Below, one piece after another: positions 23,009-32,128 of a stretch of 64,000 nt of DNA (position 1 is its first letter; every line of letters starts with the position of its first letter). The stretch covers positions 1 to 64,000 of the forward strand of contig JAZSNU010000017.1 in NCBI GenBank assembly GCA_045536565.1, in the 5' to 3' direction. This stretch comes from Clostridia bacterium (GTDB lineage Bacteria; Bacillota; Clostridia; TANB77; CAG-465). Both the position numbers and the translations under genes were made by a program. The notes beneath the pieces are model-generated. The model did no database searches. It was not told the origin of the DNA and saw nothing but the letters and a program-made list of their open reading frames with translations.

Positions 23009-23887
23009 TTGAAAGTAACAGGAATATTAAACATAAATAAACCGGCAGGAATTACATCTTATGATGTTGTTGATGTTATAAAAAAGATATTTGATGGCTC
23101 AAAAGTTGGACATACTGGTACGCTAGATCCAATAGCAACAGGAGTACTTCCAATAGTTATTGGGGATGCAACAAAGTTATCTGATGAACTAATGGCAGAA
23201 ACAAAAGTATATAGAGTAAAAATGCTACTTGGAGTAGAAACTAATACTTATGATATAACAGGTAGAATTGTATTTGCATCAGTTATTAAAAACGATGAAA
23301 TATATATTAGAGAAAGAATAAAAAGATTTATTGGAAAACAAGAGCAAGTGCCACCTGTATACAGTGCTATTAGGGTAGATGGCAAAAGAGCATATGAATA
23401 TGCAAGGGAAGGCAAAGAAGTAAAATTAAAATCAAGAGAAATTGAAATATATAACATTGACAATATTGCTGTTGATTTAAGAAAAAGAGAAGTAATATTT
23501 GATGTATACTGCACAAAAGGAACTTATGTTAGAAGTTTAGTAAATGATATTGGCAAAAAAATAGGTTGTGGTGCAACTATGGTAGAACTTACTAGACTAA
23601 AAAACGGTAATTTTGATATTAACGACAGCATTTCTTTATATGACTTCTTAAAATTAGATTATGAAGATATGAAAAAACAAGTTGTATCAATAGAAGACTA
23701 TTACAAAGATTTAAAGAAAATATCTTTAAAGAAAGAAGAATACAGCAAATACTTAAATGGAGTAAAATTATCTTTTGATGAACAGGACAAGTTAGTTAGA
23801 GTATATAACGGAAGTAAATATTCTGGTCTTGGTGAAATAAAGGATGGTAAGTTAAAAAGGTATATAGTAGAAAATGAGAGTGTGTAA
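23009..23887 (+). CDS. truB: tRNA pseudouridine(55) synthase
   Basis: KVGHTGTLDPIATGVL, QVPPVYSAI, KGTYVRSL. Confidence 0.96.
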   Translation: MKVTGILNINKPAGITSYDVVDVIKKIFDGSKVGHTGTLDPIATGVLPIVIGDATKLSDELMAETKVYRVKMLLGVETNTYDITGRIVFASVIKNDEIYIRERIKRFIGKQEQVPPVYSAIRVDGKRAYEYAREGKEVKLKSREIEIYNIDNIAVDLRKREVIFDVYCTKGTYVRSLVNDIGKKIGCGATMVELTRLKNGNFDINDSISLYDFLKLDYEDMKKQVVSIEDYYKDLKKISLKKEEYSKYLNGVKLSFDEQDKLVRVYNGSKYSGLGEIKDGKLKRYIVENESV

Positions 23888-23895
23888 ATTAAATG

Positions 23896-23925
23896 AAAAT
23901 TAGTTGCTTTTAGCAGCTGATTTTT
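23896..23925 (+). terminator. Rho-independent terminator after truB
   Basis: AAAATTAGTTGCT / AGCAGCTGATTTT hairpin + T-run. Confidence 0.7.
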
Positions 23926-23935
23926 ATTTATTTGT

Positions 23936-23964
23936 TTGCAATCTTATGTAATATATAGTAAAAT
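23936..23964 (+). promoter_or_regulatory. sigma-A promoter for RNHCP-argS
   Basis: TTGCAA-17-TAAAAT. Confidence 0.6.
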
Positions 23965-23990
23965 ATATATGTTATTTATAGGAGACTTTT

Positions 23991-24308
23991 ATGTTTATAA
24001 AAAACGATAATGAATTTATATGTGTAAATTGTAATAAAAAAGTAGAAAAATTAAAATATACATCAAGAGACCATTGTAATCATTGTCTTCATTCTATACA
24101 TGTTGATGTTTTCCCGGGCGATAGAGCAAACGAATGTAAGGGATTACTTAAACCTATTAATGTAATAGTTGATTCTAAAAAAGGAAAACAAATAGTATAC
24201 AAATGTACTAAGTGTGGCAGGGAAATTAGAAATATAGTGGCTATTGATGATGATGAAAATGAAATATACAAAGTAATTGAAAATTATTCAAGAAATGGAG
24301 GATTCTAA
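23991..24308 (+). CDS. RNHCP-domain Zn-binding protein
   Basis: FICVNC, RDHCNHCLHSIHVD, PGDRANECKG, YKCTKCG. Confidence 0.85.
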   Translation: MFIKNDNEFICVNCNKKVEKLKYTSRDHCNHCLHSIHVDVFPGDRANECKGLLKPINVIVDSKKGKQIVYKCTKCGREIRNIVAIDDDENEIYKVIENYSRNGGF

Positions 24309-26021
24309 ATGCAAAATATAAAAGAAGAGATTGCTGAAAGTATTGCAAAAGCATTAGATAAAGAAACAGCAGAAATAATAGGAAATATTGAAGTTCCAAA
24401 GGATAGTAAAATGGGTGACTTTGCATATCCTTGTTTTAAACTATCTAAGGAGCTTAGAAAGTCACCTGTTATGATTGCAGAAGAATTAAAGGACAAGATT
24501 GAAACCAGTGAAAACATAGATAAAGTAGAAGTAGTATCAGGTTATTTAAATTTCTATGTAAATAATTCAAATGTTGTAAAAGATACTATGACTGATATAT
24601 TATCTAACAAAGAAAAATATTTAGATATAGATGAAGGAAAAGATAAAAATGTTTGTATAGACTATTCTTCACCTAATATTGCTAAACCGTTCCATATTGG
24701 ACATCTCCGTTCAACAGTAATTGGTAATGCGCTATATAACATATACAAGAAATTAGGATACAATGTAATTGGAATAAATCATTTAGGAGATTTTGGAACA
24801 CAATTTGGACTAGTTATTGAAGGATATAAAAGATGGGGAAATGAATATAACTTAGAAGAAAACCCTATAAAATGCTTAGTAGATATATATGTTAGAACTA
24901 ATGAGGCAGCTAAGGAAGATGAAACAATTAAAGATATGGCAAGAGAGAATTTTAGATTGCTTGAAGAAGGCGAAGAAGAAGTAACTGCTTTATGGAGTAA
25001 GTTTAGAGAGCTTAGCCTAAAAGAATATGAGAGAATATATAAAGTACTTGATGTAGAGTTTGATTCATATAACGGAGAGGCTTTCTATAATGATAAAATG
25101 AATGAAATAGTTGATATCTTAGGACAAAAGAATTTACTTGTTCAAAGTGAAGGTGCAACAGTAGTAGAATTAGATGGCTATGAAATACCTTGTATGATAT
25201 TAAAGTCTAATGGTTCTACTACATATACAACAAGAGATTTAGCAGCCGCTTTATATAGAAAAAGAGAATATGAATATGCTAAAAGCATATATGTAACTTC
25301 ATATGAACAATCACTTCATTTTGCACAAATGTTTAAGGTAGCAGAAAACATCATAGGTGAAGATTACGCTAAAAATATGGTACATGTACCTTTTGGTATG
25401 GTGCTTGGAAAAGGTGGTAAAAAAATATCTACAAGAGGTGGCGCTAACCTAACACTAGAAGAAATATTAAATGAGGCTATTGATAAAGCAAGAAGCATAT
25501 TAGAAGAAAAAGGAAAGGCAACTGATAATATAGATGAACTTGCAAGACAAATTGGTGTTGGTGCAATTATATTTAATGACCTTAAAAACAATAGAATAAA
25601 AGACGAAATATTTAACCTAGATGATATGCTAAAATTTGATGGAGAAACAGGCCCTTATGTTCAATACATGTTTGTAAGAACAAATAGTATATTGGAAAAA
25701 GCAAATTTTGATATACAAAATGTAGATATAAATAATGTAGACTTTACTTTGCTTAAAGAAAAAGAAGAAATAGAGCTAATAAAAGCATTGTCAAAAGTAA
25801 AGGAAATAGTTAAACAAGCAGCAGACGAATATGAGCCGTCCGTTATAACAAGATATGTAATAGATATAGCAAGTCTGTTCTCAACATATTACAATGCACA
25901 TCATATAATTGTTGAAGATAATAACTTGATGAATGCAAGACTATGTTTGGTATATGCAACTGGTCTTGTTATAAAAGAATGCTTAGCAATACTTGGAATA
26001 AAATGTCCAGATAAAATGTAA
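24309..26021 (+). CDS. argS: Arginine--tRNA ligase
   Basis: DYSSPNIAKPFHIGHLRSTVIG, NHLGDFGTQFG, GETGPYVQY. Confidence 0.97.
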   Translation: MQNIKEEIAESIAKALDKETAEIIGNIEVPKDSKMGDFAYPCFKLSKELRKSPVMIAEELKDKIETSENIDKVEVVSGYLNFYVNNSNVVKDTMTDILSNKEKYLDIDEGKDKNVCIDYSSPNIAKPFHIGHLRSTVIGNALYNIYKKLGYNVIGINHLGDFGTQFGLVIEGYKRWGNEYNLEENPIKCLVDIYVRTNEAAKEDETIKDMARENFRLLEEGEEEVTALWSKFRELSLKEYERIYKVLDVEFDSYNGEAFYNDKMNEIVDILGQKNLLVQSEGATVVELDGYEIPCMILKSNGSTTYTTRDLAAALYRKREYEYAKSIYVTSYEQSLHFAQMFKVAENIIGEDYAKNMVHVPFGMVLGKGGKKISTRGGANLTLEEILNEAIDKARSILEEKGKATDNIDELARQIGVGAIIFNDLKNNRIKDEIFNLDDMLKFDGETGPYVQYMFVRTNSILEKANFDIQNVDINNVDFTLLKEKEEIELIKALSKVKEIVKQAADEYEPSVITRYVIDIASLFSTYYNAHHIIVEDNNLMNARLCLVYATGLVIKECLAILGIKCPDKM

Positions 26022-26047
26022 TAGAAAATACAAGCTAAATAAATTAG

Positions 26048-26074
26048 AGAGCCCTAGTGTAATACTAGGGTTTT
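26048..26074 (+). terminator. Rho-independent terminator after argS
   Basis: AGAGCCCTAGTG / TACTAGGGTTTT. Confidence 0.75.
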
Positions 26075-26109
26075 AATTTAATATATAAAACAAAAAGCAT
26101 AAAAAAAGG

Positions 26110-26138
26110 TATACATAATTTTAAAAACATGATATAAT
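26110..26138 (+). promoter_or_regulatory. sigma-A promoter of toxin locus
   Basis: TATACA-17-TATAAT with TG extension; AGGAGG RBS downstream. Confidence 0.6.
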
Positions 26139-26194
26139 ATACAACATAGGTATAAATAAATACAAATAATAATTTAAATGTAGGAGGTAATATT

Positions 26195-28228
26195 ATGTCT
26201 AAAAAAATTTTGTCAATGGTATTATGTGTATGTATGTTAGTTACTATATTGAGTAATGATTTAGCAAGTATTACAGTACATGCTTTTTCAAATTACAAAG
26301 TAGTAACAACGGAAAATACAACAATACGTAAAGATTGTTATCAGGACAGCAAAAAGGTAAAGGATGTAAAACAAGGAACAACATTAACAGTAACAGGAGA
26401 AAAGAAAAACAAGTATGATAACTTGTGGTACAAGGTAGATGGTGGTTACATTTTTAGTGGAAAGGTTAAAGACAAAGTTTCGACAAAAAGTGCAACTTAC
26501 CAAGTAATAGCAACTGAGAATGCAAAGATAAGAAGCAGCTACTATGAAACAGCATCAGTATCACGAAATGTGGCAAAAGGTGAAGTTTTAAAAATATCGC
26601 AAGAAGTTACTAATAAGTATGATAATCTGTGGTATAAAGTAGATGGTGGCTATATTTATAGCGGAAGAGTTAAAGAGTATGTCGTTTATAAAGATGTAAA
26701 TTTTGGCGTAATTGCAACTCAGGATACAACAATAAGGAAAGGGTTTTATGATTCAACTTCTGTTGTGCGGAATGTAAAAAAAGATGAAGTTTTTAAGGTT
26801 ACGCAAGAAATTACAAATAAATATGGCAACTTATGGTATAAAGTTTCAGACGGTTATATTTATAGCGGAAAGGTAAAAGATTATACCACTACTAAGGATG
26901 CATCATATAAAGTAATAACAAAACAAGATGCTGTTATACGAAATGGTTTTTATGAAACTGCATCAGTATCGCGAAATGTGAAAAAAGGCGAAGTTTTAAA
27001 AGTATCGCAAGAAGTTATCAACAAATATGGTAATTTGTGGTTTAAGGTAGATGGTGGCTACATTTATAGCGAAAGAGTTAAAGAAAATGTAAAAACAGTT
27101 GAGGCCTGCTATAACTTAGTAGTAACCAAGGATGCACCAATAAGGCAAGGATATTATGAAATAGCAAATGTTGTACGGAATGTAAAAAAAGGAGCAACTT
27201 TAGAAGCTAATGGTCAAATTACAAACAAATATGATAACGTTTGGTATAAAGTAGATGGTGGATATATTTATAGCGGTAATGTATCTTTATCAACTGCAAA
27301 TATTGATAAAAATCAAGCAGCAGTAAATAATTTCGGTAAAATTGACCCTGCTATAAATAGTGAGCTACTTACAAATTCGCCAGTTACAGGCCAAAAATAT
27401 GACATGAAAACAGGTAAAGTCGTAGACTTTTCTGACCTTGAAAAAATGAGTATTGAAGAATTTTCAAATACAGCTCATACTACATTAGATGTATGTGGTC
27501 TTGTTCCAGCAGCAGGTGCTTATTGTGATGGTGTGAATGTTGCATATTATTTAGTAGAAAGAAAATGGGCAGAAGCATTTTTTTCAGGCATCGCTTTAAT
27601 TCCTATTGTAGGGATTGTATCAACTAGTGGAAAATTTATTGCAAAAGCAAAGAAAGTGTCTGTTGTTGCAAGTAAAGTTGATAATGTTGCAGATGATGTA
27701 GCTAAAGAAGTAGTAGAAGAAGTAGTAGAGAAAAGTGCGAAAAAGGTAATAATAAAAAACCTTGATAATGTCACACCTGTTGCTAAAAACATTTTAGAAA
27801 ATAGTGATGATTATTCAAAGTCCACTTTGAAATCTATTAAGAAAATTTCAGAAAACAAGAAACTTAATATTTCAGAAGTTTTTTATGGTGACGATTTATT
27901 ACTTACTAATAAGTGTAAATCAAAAGTTACATCAAAGGCCAATCTGAAATATCATTTAACCGAAGGGGAAAACACGATAGACCATATAATTTTTAGACAT
28001 GCAGCTGATTCAACAGAGGATGCTAGTAAATTTATGGTTAAAGGTGAAGATGTATTTGATGTTATCGATGATGTTGTTGTAAACGGTCAAGAATATCTTA
28101 GTAAACCTTCAAGAGGTAAAATTCAAAAAGAATTTTACGCTAATAAGGTAATTGGCACCAAAGGCGAGACTAAATTAAGAGTTATAATGGAAGACGGTTA
28201 TATTGTTACTGCCTTCCCAATAAAATAG
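26195..28228 (+). CDS. Secreted polymorphic-toxin-like protein: signal peptide, 5 SH3/GW-like repeats, pre-toxin linker, putative C-terminal nuclease
   Basis: Signal peptide ending VHA; five 68-aa repeats; HTTLDVCGLVP..G..CDG.N..YY..E...A......IP.VG linker typical of polymorphic toxins; tip HIIFRH..SKF..RVI..GYIVTAFP. Confidence 0.75.
   Translation: MSKKILSMVLCVCMLVTILSNDLASITVHAFSNYKVVTTENTTIRKDCYQDSKKVKDVKQGTTLTVTGEKKNKYDNLWYKVDGGYIFSGKVKDKVSTKSATYQVIATENAKIRSSYYETASVSRNVAKGEVLKISQEVTNKYDNLWYKVDGGYIYSGRVKEYVVYKDVNFGVIATQDTTIRKGFYDSTSVVRNVKKDEVFKVTQEITNKYGNLWYKVSDGYIYSGKVKDYTTTKDASYKVITKQDAVIRNGFYETASVSRNVKKGEVLKVSQEVINKYGNLWFKVDGGYIYSERVKENVKTVEACYNLVVTKDAPIRQGYYEIANVVRNVKKGATLEANGQITNKYDNVWYKVDGGYIYSGNVSLSTANIDKNQAAVNNFGKIDPAINSELLTNSPVTGQKYDMKTGKVVDFSDLEKMSIEEFSNTAHTTLDVCGLVPAAGAYCDGVNVAYYLVERKWAEAFFSGIALIPIVGIVSTSGKFIAKAKKVSVVASKVDNVADDVAKEVVEEVVEKSAKKVIIKNLDNVTPVAKNILENSDDYSKSTLKSIKKISENKKLNISEVFYGDDLLLTNKCKSKVTSKANLKYHLTEGENTIDHIIFRHAADSTEDASKFMVKGEDVFDVIDDVVVNGQEYLSKPSRGKIQKEFYANKVIGTKGETKLRVIMEDGYIVTAFPIK
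26285..27290 (+). repeat. Five tandem 204-bp (68-aa) repeats
   Basis: NKY(D/G)N(L/V)W(Y/F)KV..GYI motif starts at 26408, 26612, 26816, 27020 and 27224 (exact 204-bp period). Confidence 0.9.
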
Positions 28229-28238
28229 GAGGTAAATT

Positions 28239-28469
28239 ATGGCAATGTGTGAAGTTTGTCTTTCTACTGATATGGTAAAAGGAACAACGAAAGATACTAA
28301 AAAAGAGCTTGTAATTTGTAAAGAATGTTACAGCATATACGAGCTTGATAATAATGGCAAACTTGTAGTAAATCATGACCCAAACGATAAAAAGTATTTT
28401 AAAAAGTTAAAAAAACTATTTAAAAGTTGGGACAATATGGAAAATGTAGTTCCATACAAAGCAGGGTAA
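28239..28469 (+). CDS. Small Zn-ribbon (CxxC...CxxC) protein, candidate immunity protein
   Basis: CEVC and CKEC; AGGAGG RBS overlaps the toxin stop codon; no signal peptide. Confidence 0.65.
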   Translation: MAMCEVCLSTDMVKGTTKDTKKELVICKECYSIYELDNNGKLVVNHDPNDKKYFKKLKKLFKSWDNMENVVPYKAG

Positions 28470-28474
28470 AAATA

Positions 28475-28497
28475 GGGGTAAGGTTATCCCTTACCCC
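28475..28497 (+). other. GC-rich intercistronic hairpin without U-tract
   Basis: GGGGTAAGG-TTATC-CCTTACCCC. Confidence 0.6.
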
Positions 28498-28532
28498 ATA
28501 ATCTCACTAATAATTATTAAGGAGGAAATGTA

Positions 28533-29378
28533 ATGAAAAAAATTATAACTATTTTTTTAATATTTGTTTTGACTATTTGCCCTGCTGTGTGTTTTGCTGC
28601 TGAATATTGTGATTTTACAGATGAAAACAACCATTATTACAGTTATTCAAGTACAATGTATACTATGCATCCTCATGCTGGCTATTTAGAATGCATCTGT
28701 GGAAAAGAACACCATTCATCTAAGCTGTATATGGATGATTGCATAAAATGTCAAAAAGAATTGTGCGAAAATGGAATTCATTATTATTTGCATGAAGTAA
28801 AATATACAGATAAACATAATGGTTATGGAATGTGTTTCTGCGGTAAAAAACAATATTTTACAAGTTTTGAAAATACTTTTGATTTTGATGAACAATTTCC
28901 GTGGGCATTTAGAGAAATTGACAGAAAGAATAATGTTACTATTGTAAATGCTAATCATCCTCATGAAGAATATGAGTATGATGGCTATAATTTACGGAAG
29001 ATAAATGATTCTGGATGTATTTTTACTGCTTGTGGTGCTTGTCAAATTCAAAGTGAATACTATGATCAAGTAGATGAATATAATTGGGATAAAGTTACGG
29101 CTTATCAAGATAATTATTATGATGATAATTATGATAGTTATTACGAAGACTATTATTATAATGCTTACGATGATTACTATTATGAAGACTATTACTATGA
29201 TGATTACGATGACGACTATTATGAAGATGACTATTATTATGATGATTATGATGTTGACAATTATGACGGCTATTATGATGATTCTGAGTACTATGAAGAT
29301 GACTATGATGATGGTGACGATGATATTTCAGATGAAGAATTATATGAATGGCTTGGTATTGTAAAAGAATTGTTGTAA
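28533..29378 (+). CDS. Secreted Cys/His-rich protein with Tyr/Asp-rich tail
   Basis: Signal peptide ending CFA; HPH..ECICG, CFCG, CIKC and CGAC motifs; about 90 residues dominated by Y/D/E. Confidence 0.75.
   Translation: MKKIITIFLIFVLTICPAVCFAAEYCDFTDENNHYYSYSSTMYTMHPHAGYLECICGKEHHSSKLYMDDCIKCQKELCENGIHYYLHEVKYTDKHNGYGMCFCGKKQYFTSFENTFDFDEQFPWAFREIDRKNNVTIVNANHPHEEYEYDGYNLRKINDSGCIFTACGACQIQSEYYDQVDEYNWDKVTAYQDNYYDDNYDSYYEDYYYNAYDDYYYEDYYYDDYDDDYYEDDYYYDDYDVDNYDGYYDDSEYYEDDYDDGDDDISDEELYEWLGIVKELL
29060..29330 (+). repeat. Low-complexity TAT/TAC/GAT/GAC tract (Tyr/Asp-rich)
   Basis: Encodes YYDDNYDSYYEDYYYNAYDDYYYEDYYYDDYDDDYYEDDYYYDD... Confidence 0.85.
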
Positions 29379-29385
29379 TTTATAA

Positions 29386-29414
29386 AGAAGAACTTTAATT
29401 AGTTCTTCTTTTTT
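29386..29414 (+). terminator. Rho-independent terminator, copy 1 of a 29-bp direct repeat
   Basis: AGAAGAACT-TTAATT-AGTTCTTCT-TTTTT; identical to 31115-31143. Confidence 0.85.
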
Positions 29415-29495
29415 CTACATTTTTTATCTATGTAATATTATTAAAAGTATAATTTTTTATGTAAAAGTAAGTCGTACGATTTTTCTAAAATGTTG

Positions 29496-29524
29496 TTGAC
29501 TTTTAAGTAGTATGACAATATAAT
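29496..29524 (+). promoter_or_regulatory. sigma-A promoter with no adjacent ORF
   Basis: TTGACT-17-TATAAT. Confidence 0.5.
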
Positions 29525-29673
29525 ATGAACACTTGGTATCAAGTTTTTAATTTGTACAATTTTTATCAAAAATATTAATTCAAAAAATATATAATTTATT
29601 CTTTAATAGTTTAATTAGATTTTAAAAATAATACAAAACACCAACTAATAGTTGTTAAACCAAAACAAATATG

Positions 29674-29702
29674 TTGCAAATAAACACAGTATGTGTTACA
29701 AT
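29674..29702 (+). promoter_or_regulatory. sigma-A promoter of Rpn gene
   Basis: TTGCAA-17-TACAAT with TG extension, immediately before GGAGG RBS. Confidence 0.55.
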
Positions 29703-29718
29703 GGAATGGAGGAATGCA

Positions 29719-30774
29719 ATGCAAGAAGAATTTAATATGAGTCCTAAAATGGATGTGGTATTTAAAGCATTTTTTAGCAAGAAAGGAAATGAAAATCTTT
29801 TAGAAGATTTTTTATCTAGTATATTAGGTGAAAAAGTTAAGTGTAAAGAAATAATAGATGAGGCAAGAATAGGAGCAAAAAGACCAGGAGAAAAATATGG
29901 AACTCTTGATATAAAAGCAGTATTAGAAAATGGTGTTGAGATAGATATAGAGATGCAAATGGCAGACAGAAAAGACACTATAAATAGAGCCTTGTATTAC
30001 ATGAGTATGTTAACAGTAGAAGGGCTACATCCATCAGAAGAATATAAGCAAATGAAAAAGAAAATAGTAATATTCTTAATGGACTATGAATTATTTAAAT
30101 TAGATAAAACAATAGTAAGTTCGTATTTATGCTTAAATGAAGATAAAAATCAAGAAATAACAAACCTGCAAAAATATTACTTTATAGATTTAACAAAAGC
30201 AAAAGAATTAACGGATAAAGATAGAAGAAGGTTAAGAATATGGCTGGCATTCCTGAATCGAGATAAAAAGGAGTTGTCTATGGTGAAGGAAGATAAAATA
30301 ATGAAAAAAGCAGAGGAAGAGTATGGATATTTAACAGGAGATGCAGAATTAAAAAGACTGGCGTGGCTTAGAATAAAAGCAATAAAGGACGAAGCAGCAA
30401 GTCGAAGATTAGGATTAGAGGAAGGAATAGAAAAAGGCATTAAGGAAAGTAGGAATGAAATTGCCCAAAAACTTATAGCAGAAGGGCTAGATACGGAGAA
30501 GATAGTGGAACTAACCGGTCTTGAAAAAGAAGAAGTTGAAAGGCTAGAAAAAGAATATCCATATTTAAGAGGTGAAGAAGAAAGAAAAAGACTAGAATGG
30601 TTAAAAATAAAAGCAATAAAGGATGAAGCAGCGAGTAGAAGATTGGGATTAGAGGAAGGAATAAAACAAGGTAAATATGAAGTGGCAAAGAAGTTATTGA
30701 AAAAAGGAATTGATATATGCGAAATTATTGAACTGACTGGTATTAGTGAAAAAGAATTAGAGAGTTTAAAATAA
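29719..30774 (+). CDS. Rpn family / PD-(D/E)XK nuclease family transposase-like protein with duplicated C-terminal domain
   Basis: SPKMDVVFKAFF, LDIKA..IDIEMQ, RALYYMS; C-terminal EEGIEKG..EIAQKL..G.D...I.ELTG unit present twice; GGAGG RBS favours ATG 29719. Confidence 0.88.
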   Translation: MQEEFNMSPKMDVVFKAFFSKKGNENLLEDFLSSILGEKVKCKEIIDEARIGAKRPGEKYGTLDIKAVLENGVEIDIEMQMADRKDTINRALYYMSMLTVEGLHPSEEYKQMKKKIVIFLMDYELFKLDKTIVSSYLCLNEDKNQEITNLQKYYFIDLTKAKELTDKDRRRLRIWLAFLNRDKKELSMVKEDKIMKKAEEEYGYLTGDAELKRLAWLRIKAIKDEAASRRLGLEEGIEKGIKESRNEIAQKLIAEGLDTEKIVELTGLEKEEVERLEKEYPYLRGEEERKRLEWLKIKAIKDEAASRRLGLEEGIKQGKYEVAKKLLKKGIDICEIIELTGISEKELESLK

Positions 30775-30830
30775 TATAAATAACATTTGTTAATATAAAA
30801 ACAAGATTTACATATAGCAGTGCATGTGAG

Positions 30831-30859
30831 TTGAAATTTACATAAAAAAGTGATATAAT
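30831..30859 (+). promoter_or_regulatory. sigma-A promoter (cassette-type)
   Basis: TTGAAA-TTTACATAAAAAAGTGA-TATAAT. Confidence 0.7.
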
Positions 30860-30913
30860 ATTAGTGTATTAAAAATTAGTACAAATATTAATATATTTAA
30901 AGGAGATATAAAT

Positions 30914-31105
30914 ATGAAATATGATGTTATTTATGAACGATCAATTGCATCAACTTATACCGCAATAAGCGCGTTAACAGTAAAAGTAAATAGAGCAATT
31001 GAGGAGGGGTGGAAACCTATTGGCGGAATCGCTGTATATGATACTTATGCTTGCCAAGCCATGATAAAAGATAATAACGATGAAACACTAAAAAAGTATG
31101 TATAG
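30914..31105 (+). CDS. DUF1737-like small protein
   Basis: LTVKVNRAIEEGWKPIGG...YACQAMIK pattern; AAGGAG RBS. Confidence 0.7.
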   Translation: MKYDVIYERSIASTYTAISALTVKVNRAIEEGWKPIGGIAVYDTYACQAMIKDNNDETLKKYV

Positions 31106-31114
31106 TAGTGTTAT

Positions 31115-31143
31115 AGAAGAACTTTAATTAGTTCTTCTTTTTT
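31115..31143 (+). terminator. Rho-independent terminator, copy 2 of the 29-bp direct repeat
   Basis: Identical to 29386-29414. Confidence 0.85.
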
Positions 31144-31240
31144 TGTTTGTTTTAGACATTTTATTCAAATATTTAGTATATATTTTTACAAAATAATATA
31201 TATATCCTATGGTATATTTAATCTAGTTAGAGGAAAAATT

Positions 31241-32128
31241 ATGGAAGAAATTTTAAAATATATGCCAAATAATATGGCTTTATGTGTTAAAAAATATTTA
31301 GGTAATCAAGGAATAAATGAGATTCGTTTAAGAAGTGGAAATCATTTAATACTTAGGTTTACAACGAGGGAAATAGTAACTGATTACATAGTGTCAAAAG
31401 AAGACATATTAAATATACTACTTAGTATATCTAAAAACTCTATATATTCTATTCAAAATGATATTAATAATGGATTTTTAACTATTAAAGGTGGACATAG
31501 AGTTGGTGTTACAGGAGAAGTTGTACTTGAAGATGACAAAATTAAAAATATTAAAAACATATCATCGATGAATATACGAATAGCAAGAGAAATAAAAGGA
31601 GCAGCCAGTAAATTAATAAATTATGTAGTAAATGGAAATAATATAAATAACACACTTATTGTATCGGGGCCAGGTTGTGGCAAAACAACAATGCTTAGAG
31701 ATTTAATTAGGCAAATAAGTAATATAGGAAGAAATGTTGCGCTAATTGACGAAAGAGGCGAACTTGCTTCAATGCATGAAGGAAAAGCAATGTTAGATGT
31801 GGGCCCGAGAACTGATGTGATGTCATTTTGTCCTAAGCACAAAGGTATAACACTTGTTACAAGAAGTATGGGACCTGATGTTATAGCAACAGATGAAATA
31901 GGAAACAGAAAAGATATTGAAGCAATAAAAAATGCAGCACTTACAGGAGTAAGTCTTTTGTTTACGATGCATGGAAGAAATATTAACGATTTAAAGAAAA
32001 ATAAAGAAGTAAATCAGATTATATCAGAAGGGTATTTTGATGTAATAGTTTTCTTATCAAATAGAAATGGCGTAGGTACAATAGAAAAAATTATAAAAGG
32101 AAAAGGTGATTTTAATGCTTATTGTTAA
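31241..32128 (+). CDS. spoIIIAA: Stage III sporulation protein AA (ATPase)
   Basis: EIRLR, GGHRVGVTG, GPGCGKTTMLRD, DERGELA, DEIG. Confidence 0.94.
   Translation: MEEILKYMPNNMALCVKKYLGNQGINEIRLRSGNHLILRFTTREIVTDYIVSKEDILNILLSISKNSIYSIQNDINNGFLTIKGGHRVGVTGEVVLEDDKIKNIKNISSMNIRIAREIKGAASKLINYVVNGNNINNTLIVSGPGCGKTTMLRDLIRQISNIGRNVALIDERGELASMHEGKAMLDVGPRTDVMSFCPKHKGITLVTRSMGPDVIATDEIGNRKDIEAIKNAALTGVSLLFTMHGRNINDLKKNKEVNQIISEGYFDVIVFLSNRNGVGTIEKIIKGKGDFNAYC

Follow-up and report, generated by a model that had tools for sequence, protein, structure and literature searches.

A putative Sec-exported SH3b-repeat protein with an EndoU/BECR-like tip and a secreted partner in a Clostridia genome

Bacillus subtilis WapA is a wall-associated Rhs toxin. 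In the WapA toxins a Sec signal is combined with wall-anchoring repeats, and removal of the signal sequence from S. suis WapA compromised WapA-dependent killing (PMC12704120). Another group was described by Zhang et al. 2012 (PMC3482391): in toxins delivered by the type II secretion system (T2SS; Sec), SH3 domains are usually N-terminal and probably anchor the toxin to the wall of its producer. Further architectures are listed in the supplement of the Pandoomain PT-TG survey, 2026 (PMC13483458), among them four Choline_bind_3 domains, SH3_3, PT-TG and a Col-Pyo DNase in a 588-amino-acid (aa) Clostridium protein, three SLH domains, PT-TG and a ribonuclease in Bacillus, and entries with LXG, PT-TG and EndoU (PF14436 appears 568 times in file 1). 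In the main text of that survey, SH3 is not mentioned. Here we compare with these systems a toxin-type gene and the two genes behind it. They lie in a window of 64,000 nucleotides (nt), positions 1-64,000 of the forward strand of contig JAZSNU010000017.1, from a Clostridia bacterium (TANB77; CAG-465; assembly GCA_045536565.1, hereafter G000). The toxin-type gene (26195-28228) encodes a protein of 677 aa, hereafter P0001. On balance, and with modest confidence, we read P0001 as a Sec-exported antibacterial effector that would bind the cell wall with SH3b repeats and carry an EndoU/BECR-like RNase tip.

Domain architecture and comparison with described toxins

P0001 has the build of a Sec-exported effector of the polymorphic-toxin type, as an earlier note on this DNA had proposed: a signal peptide, SH3b repeats, a pre-toxin module and a C-terminal tip follow one another. 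Residues 1-30 contain two Lys, a hydrophobic core (Kyte-Doolittle mean <=2.1) and then VHA followed by F, which agrees with the signal peptide predicted before; the homologues aligned with P0001 keep the AF that follows the predicted cleavage site. The five repeats of exactly 68 aa were also found as described. NKY recurs at residues 72, 140, 208, 276 and 344, the repeats are 44-69% identical in pairwise comparison, and Tandem Repeats Finder reported periods of 204 and 408 nt over this region. Three stretches of it were matched by Pfam SH3_3 (PF08239; 43 bits where the cut-off is 27, E 5.3e-11).

Since some members of the P0001 family match the NCBIfam wall-binding models EntA/EntD, and since the same SH3 type forms the C-terminus of amidase-like proteins on metagenome contigs, the SH3b repeats are likely to bind peptidoglycan. 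When the protein family of the operon was scanned with NCBIfam, SH3 wall-binding models alone were matched. A search of the metagenome contigs with SH3 patterns returned three loci; the two that were inspected (L067 and L068) encode amidase-SH3 proteins, and no new loci of the family were obtained. The Pfam scan of P0001 revealed no Rhs, LXG, WXG100 or HINT domain, in agreement with the earlier reading. In addition, a genome-wide search of G000 for the three families WXG100, LXG and RHS_repeat gave no match, and export of P0001 by type VII secretion (T7SS) or an Rhs route was rejected on this ground.

With the Sec ('T2SS') SH3 toxins as described in PMC3482391, P0001 shares the signal peptide, the N-terminal SH3 domains, a pre-toxin module and, at the C-terminus, a domain of toxin type. 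It differs from them in that its tip and pre-toxin module have no Pfam model, the tip hardly varies, and a gene for a secreted Cys/His-repeat partner lies downstream. WapA, as presented in PMC12704120, resembles P0001 in its Sec signal peptide, its N-terminal wall-binding repeats, its C-terminal RNase-type toxin (putative in P0001) and its Gram-positive producer. However, there is no Rhs/YD shell in P0001 or G000, the protein has a mass of ~75 kDa compared to >300 kDa for WapA, and neither a SecF-like nor a sortase B gene stands beside it in the list of open reading frames (ORFs). The architectures in the supplement of PMC13483458 show the same order of wall-binding repeats, pre-toxin linker and nuclease-type tip, but the tip of P0001 is unannotated. 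P0001 would have been missed by that survey, which is based on hidden Markov models, because its linker is not PF14449.

The earlier note had gone further and proposed a new class of toxin delivery. This claim had to be given up in view of the SH3-bearing Sec toxins of PMC3482391, WapA in PMC12704120 and the combination of SH3_3/choline-binding domains, PT-TG and DNase in PMC13483458. The delivery design has already been described; the locus is a variant of it in which the modules lack annotation and the partner gene is unusual.

The pre-toxin hairpin and the C-terminal tip

Besides the signal peptide, residues 457-484 form the sole hydrophobic stretch of P0001 (Kyte-Doolittle mean 1.5-1.8 over 19 aa), in keeping with the hydrophobic linker noted before at 27476-27613 (residues 428-474). 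A full HMMER scan with residues 430-677 (248 aa) as query returned 339 clusters, formed at 50% identity, at E<=1e-3. Seven clusters besides the query itself matched over the whole length, and nearly all others among the 150 matches listed aligned to the first ~90 query residues only. Thirty-eight of these 150 were scanned with Pfam. We found WXG100 in two, RHS repeats in six, PT-HINT in four, eCIS_core in three, Big_13 in three and a PAAR-like domain in one, while 15 of the 38 contained no Pfam family at all. Among the domains at their C-termini are Col-Pyo DNase/LHH/HNH, AHH, Tse2, Ntox5, Ntox3, Colicin D, DUF4258, Peptidase C39 and DUF6310. The hairpin is followed by a median of 152 aa in 141 relatives (interquartile range 121-220; 60-260 aa in 82%) and by 187 aa in P0001. 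In an alignment of 145 hairpin sequences, 13 positions are kept in >=91% (L431, D432, G435, P438, G441, D445, N448, Y452, A461, S464, P470, G473 and K480). Judged by these relatives, the hairpin is a real and widespread pre-toxin module.

The linker had also been likened to PT-TG and to the linkers that precede toxin tips. The second part stands, as seen by the relatives with WXG100, Rhs/PT-HINT, extracellular contractile injection system (eCIS) and PAAR-like domains, but the identity with PT-TG does not. PF14449 gave no match on the P0001 linker at E<=10 and none in G000, and it matched neither the 38 scanned relatives nor 12 further ones (E<=1). An hhalign comparison with 13 PT-TG members yielded 3.5% and a score of 17.5, within the range of the shuffles (up to 21). 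LXG, one of the expected contexts, was likewise found in none of the 38 relatives. The hairpin (27476-27655; P0027-P0168) constitutes a large family, and no model in the Pfam and NCBIfam copies searched matches it. Weak sub-threshold matches of its relatives to the C-terminus of NolX and to DUF4112 hint at a membrane-type character. [quoted passage not shown] A near-length word search with residues 430-677 returned the query alone, and the plasmid and phage collections contained no match to the C-terminal module.

The tip carries the sequence HIIFRH...VTAFPIK, as stated before. Two alignments were built, one of 13 sequences (A2) and one of 32 (A3). All sequences of the larger one have Y586, H597, H602, F613, G654 and P675, and either Thr or Ser at position 672; 30 of the 32 retain D625, and 30 retain R594. 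P0001 itself has Asn583 where 31 of the 32 have Gly, and Thr594 where 30 have Arg.

The 13-sequence alignment was compared by hhalign with nine EndoU_bacteria domains from genomes of the class. This gave a probability of 91% and a score of 42.2 over the C-terminal 71 columns only; 100 column shuffles reached a mean of 11.2 and a maximum of 16.9, and the reversed alignment 19.0. The aligned part comprises a helix (..IF..IDDVY..) and the strands up to V-I-T-A-F/Y-P. These results support homology of the tip to the C-terminal unit of bacterial EndoU, and the relation to EndoU suggested earlier is likely for this unit. In common with EndoU_bacteria (PF14436), the tip has the helix, a last strand of the form (V/I)(I/V)(T/S)A(F/Y)P, and a pair of His and a Thr/Ser that are conserved. 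Unlike EndoU, it stays below the Pfam thresholds, is unaligned in its N-terminal half, is shorter and lacks EndoU's conserved Lys/ST.FP segment. PF14436 matched one of the 13 tips (E 0.015, under the cut-off) and not that of P0001, and it had no match in G000 at E<=1e-5.

Zhang et al. 2012 (PMC3482391) give the residue set of EndoU as 'H, H, [SNT],[SNT]' and describe Ntox35 as a BECR domain of firmicutes and planctomycetes with two N-terminal His ('H, KH') and an S/T in the C-terminal strand. By sequence, H597, H602 and T/S672 fit both descriptions. Tip and Ntox35 thus described have H...(R/K)H and T/S672 in common and occur in the same two phyla. The Ntox35 model (PF15534), however, matched nothing in G000 at E<=10 and none of the 32 tip proteins, and beyond this the two were compared by description only. 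No Ntox35 members were found in the 401 genomes of the order, but the controls were also silent, so this blank says little. Among the neighbours of a Planctomycete tip homologue in a protein atlas, the first with a name was an EndoU cluster (score 0.83), which we take as a lead only; the homologue P0003 gave no usable match there. Sequence searches of the PDB with the C-terminal module, the tip profile, P0010 (see below) and the partner profile returned nothing below E 0.07. The tip is probably a small, one-unit EndoU/BECR-like putative RNase domain whose family is unnamed in the databases.

The operon, its family and its genomic setting

Sixteen clusters of 569-714 aa (P0002-P0009, P0011, P0012, P0024-P0026 and P0169-P0171; 15 examined at full length, P0170 from the match table) have the following parts in common: signal peptide, one or two SH3 units, hairpin, middle region and tip. 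Among the 17 clusters with a P0001-type N-terminus (SH3/HPHY), 16 end in the same tip family. The exception is P0010 (711 aa), in which a P0001-like SH3/HPHY front is joined to another Gly-rich hydrophobic linker and an unrelated C-terminus of ~170 aa (..YFYHYHLG....AHIFFG) without a Pfam or PDB match. P0001 contains five SH3 units and no HPH motif; its homologues have mostly one or two SH3 units, and two to seven HPH motifs were counted in ten of them, located after the SH3 units and before the hairpin. Because these counts differ while the tip is constant, the binding region and not the tip is the variable part of the family. The earlier note had named as grounds against its proposal a described architecture or a non-toxic tip that is invariant across homologues. 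These grounds are present in part: a class with this architecture has been described, and the tip is constant to the extent just given.

The tip was also detected in other settings, directly after a PT-HINT domain in P0122 and after a signal peptide in P0172. Roughly 55 clusters of Planctomycete-type tip proteins (243-327 aa; assigned by length, P0173-P0231) consist of an N-terminal transmembrane (TM) helix, a low-complexity or disordered stretch and the tip. All seven clusters inspected have the TM helix, every organism name given by the source is that of a Planctomycete, and all are annotated as 'hypothetical'. The middle region (residues 488-574) is found neither in P0122 nor in the Planctomycete tip proteins. 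With respect to polymorphic toxins in the sense of Zhang 2012, P0001 has an N-terminal secretion part, as indicated by its signal-peptide features, and its tip occurs behind other trafficking and pre-toxin modules.

In the 401 genomes of the order, ten matched the C-terminal module at E<=1e-3, and six of these matches are weak and partial. The full module was found in four genomes only, namely G000, G057 (twice), G136 and G186. Within the family this amounts to 4 of 79 genomes, with a different neighbourhood each time, and the five loci share no neighbour gene besides the genes of the operon. The gap between argS and spoIIIAA was compared with that of four congeners: it measures 160 bp in G190, 684 bp in G057, ~1.3 kb in G130, 2.9 kb in G180, where it contains other secreted proteins, and 5.2 kb here. 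Owing to the sporadic distribution and these gap sizes, we regard the operon as an accessory insertion in a variable gap. Genes with a prepilin-like N-terminus (..IILAAAIILSLSNSGII.KANKAKTDSD.ANL..) recur beside the G057 toxin operons, and in G180 another is found between argS and spoIIIAA (coordinates L064 3576-6164, L014 9171-10238 and L015 4113-5309). G000 has a size of 1.13 Mb, is scored 100% complete with 0.93% contamination, and keeps the sporulation genes spoIIIAA and spoIIIAB; its relatives in the order among the matches listed have genomes of 0.9-2.1 Mb.

As the earlier note had seen, a tightly coupled small gene and a second secreted protein follow the toxin gene (Table 1). In G057 contig 4, a homologue of the 76-aa gene with 50% identity follows the closest tip in the corresponding position. 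The gene is present in two of the five loci, those with the most similar tips. Elsewhere in the 401 genomes, its protein had ten other matches at E<=0.01, all weak (E 0.003-0.01), nine of them in open frames of 225-2836 aa. From these data, the 76-aa protein is a candidate immunity protein of this tip subtype. Directly behind the toxin gene, each of the five loci has a homologue of the 281-aa partner, with 29-34% BLAST identity. Members of the partner family combine a signal peptide with a conserved Cys/His domain, a Tyr/Asp/Glu tail, which is much expanded in the partner here, and a conserved C-terminal ..WL..V..L. When the Cys/His domain was compared with the central repeats of the toxin homologues, hhalign gave 95.9% over 128 columns, and the two are homologous. 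The repeat concerned, here called HPHY, is ~44 aa long (H.H.Y....YE..HPHYA.YECSCGSGYCG.ET.K..GC..CYP) and has no Pfam match. The ten toxin homologues counted contain two to seven copies in their central regions (P0002-P0012), and the partner contains about three (28533-29100).

Table 1. Positions of the operon, its domains and adjacent elements in the window
Feature	Position	Strand	Details
Toxin-type gene P0001	26195..28228	+	677 aa, whole coding sequence including stop; AGGAGG site at 26184-26189
Signal peptide (predicted)	26195..26284	+	residues 1-30, VHA/F; hydrophobicity scan
Five SH3b repeats, 68 aa each	26288..27307	+	residues 32-371; exact period, Pfam SH3_3
Spacer	27308..27475	+	residues 372-427; without HPHY repeats in P0001
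Pre-toxin hydrophobic hairpin module	27476..27655	+	residues 428-487; H..LD..G..P..G...D..N...Y........A..S.....P..G......K
Charged middle region, family-specific	27656..27916	+	residues 488-574; kept in full-module homologues only
C-terminal tip, EndoU/BECR-like putative RNase domain	27917..28225	+	residues 575-677
Gene for 76-aa cytoplasmic CxxC...CxxC protein	28239..28469	+	begins 10 nt past toxin stop; AGGAGG site
GC-rich 9-bp hairpin	28475..28497	+	perfect; -16.5 kcal/mol, z -4.0; between 76-aa gene and partner gene
Gene for 281-aa secreted partner	28533..29378	+	signal peptide, Cys/His-rich domain, long Tyr/Asp/Glu tail, C-terminal ..WL..V..L
argS terminator hairpin, upstream boundary	26048..26074	+	terminator scan; -16.7 kcal/mol, z -4.5
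Promoter-like site	26110..26138	+	TATACA, 17 nt, TG-extended TATAAT; 10/12 matches plus TG
Probable intrinsic terminator	29384..29425	+	11-bp hairpin and U-run; -12.4 kcal/mol, z -5.4
Rpn-family PD-(D/E)XK nuclease/transposase-like gene	29671..30774	+	TIGR01784 9e-48; PF12784 4e-35; context only

The operon is flanked by argS (TIGR00456, 8e-149) and spoIIIAA (TIGR02858, 5.5e-87), as noted before, with two more ORFs, unmentioned then, between the operon and spoIIIAA: the Rpn-family gene and a 63-aa ORF. Of the promoter and terminator that had been attributed to the locus, the terminator is probable; the terminator consensus scan did not pick its hairpin. The promoter-like site is present, but the scan found 39 such sites against 25.9 +/- 5.3 in shuffles, and in DNA this AT-rich the call is weak evidence. 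Because the hairpin that separates the 76-aa gene from the partner gene lacks a U-run on the coding strand, it may be an attenuator or an element of mRNA processing or stabilisation. An Rfam search of 23500-31500 gave no match. Among sequencing runs, none of RNA was listed as containing this DNA, and three DNA runs contained small shares (0.05-0.09). PADLOC had no match for the three operon proteins, and a defence-system reading of the operon was dropped for this reason. In the Rpn-family gene, a C-terminal helix-turn-helix-like segment is duplicated internally (two copies of ..KRL.WL.IKAIKDEAASRRLGLEEGI..), and a relative with 39% identity lies upstream of argS in G057. Directly upstream of argS here, at 23991-24308, an RNHCP-domain zinc-ribbon protein is encoded; of five congeners checked, four also have it together with argS (70-79% identity).

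Proposed mechanism, alternative explanations and implications

If P0001 is an effector, the unfolded protein would pass through Sec by means of its signal peptide and would be cut after VHA30. Judged by their family, the five SH3b repeats would bind peptidoglycan, either on the producer's wall or for docking on that of a neighbour. The Gly/Pro-rich hydrophobic hairpin (residues 428-487), homologous to that of the relatives above, would join carrier and payload; it probably aids entry of the payload into, or its passage across, the target membrane, or marks a processing site. In the target cytoplasm the tip would cleave RNA, with His597 and His602 acting as acid and base and Thr672 on the last strand. 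The zinc-ribbon-like, cytoplasmic 76-aa protein would be the candidate immunity protein by its position and co-occurrence, and the co-transcribed, secreted protein with its Cys/His repeats and Tyr/Asp-rich part would act as a conserved extracellular partner.

Several observations weigh against this assignment. No Pfam or NCBIfam toxin model reaches its threshold on P0001, and the N-terminal half of the tip, including the region of the His motif, has no reliable alignment with EndoU. Variable C-termini behind one N-terminus, which characterize polymorphic toxins in the sense of Zhang 2012, were not found in the family apart from P0010. In three of the five loci the toxin and partner genes abut or overlap and leave no room for a small immunity gene, and for this reason the 76-aa protein is a candidate for one tip subtype only. 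No homologue of its gene was found anywhere in G136 and G186, and elsewhere in G057 there was one weak match (E 0.058). With N583 and T594, the P0001 copy may be attenuated. The Planctomycete proteins in which a membrane anchor precedes the tip look more like resident enzymes than weapons, and the hairpin could serve as a membrane anchor during Sec export.

Some of these points would be accounted for by a wall-anchored extracellular RNase with no part in antagonism, which would degrade RNA for nucleotide salvage or matrix turnover and would not require an immunity protein. The tip is nearly constant (16 of 17 clusters), three of the five loci are without an immunity-sized gene, in many Planctomycete proteins the tip domain is on its own behind a membrane anchor, and the genome is complete (100%) at the very small size of 1.13 Mb. 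Nevertheless, we consider this explanation rather unlikely, considering that the hairpin upstream of the tip is otherwise known from toxin architectures and that in P0122 the tip comes after a releasing domain, PT-HINT. Moreover, the sporadic occurrence of the operon in 4 of 79 genomes, in a different place each time, suits conflict genes better than a salvage enzyme.

It is improbable that P0001 is a membrane-anchored surface protein, with the hairpin (431-484) as a stop-transfer or re-entrant anchor, the SH3 repeats toward the wall, and the C-terminus acting together with the partner in adhesion or wall organisation and not in catalysis. The hydrophobicity of residues 457-484, the sub-threshold matches of hairpin relatives to the NolX C-terminus and DUF4112, and a conserved secreted neighbour that has repeats in common with the toxin homologues would agree with such a role. 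However, the same hairpin is found on soluble secreted substrates of T7SS, T6SS and eCIS, the segment is only moderately hydrophobic and has Pro and Gly at invariant positions, and the invariant His, His and Thr/Ser suggest an enzyme, as does the link to EndoU. Quite improbable, in our view, is a decaying or retargeted toxin that is maybe no longer active: an unbroken frame runs through all 677 codons, the two His are kept along with T672, F613, D625, G654 and P675, and the 76-aa and partner genes are intact and have good ribosome-binding sites. Such decay would be in line with the lack of HPH repeats (two to seven in the ten homologues counted), with five SH3 repeats in place of mostly one or two, and with G583N and R594T, which are unique or nearly so among the 32 sequences.

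We therefore retain the Sec-exported, wall-binding effector as our preferred reading. A bolder version of it, which is speculative and which we would not expect to hold, is a distinct toxin system of two proteins, dependent on Sec, in gut Clostridia with small genomes. A carrier that binds the wall, an unnamed but widespread pre-toxin translocation hairpin and a new, minimal one-unit EndoU-like RNase would then be combined with the co-secreted Cys/His-repeat, Tyr/Asp-rich partner, which would act as extracellular immunity protein, adaptor or receptor decoy and take the place of the Rhs shell as well as of the usual immunity protein in the cytoplasm.

The locus contains three families that are missed by current domain libraries: the pre-toxin hairpin, the small EndoU-like tip and the HPHY repeat. 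The hairpin is common to hundreds of toxins linked to T6SS, T7SS, eCIS and Rhs, and the tip occurs in Clostridia and Planctomycetes. Naming these families would improve the annotation of toxins. The pairing of a toxin with a secreted partner, while an immunity gene is missing in most loci, raises the question of how self-protection against Sec-exported toxins, or the aiming of such toxins, is achieved in Gram-positive bacteria. What deserves to be followed are the unnamed hairpin module and this pairing of toxin and partner.

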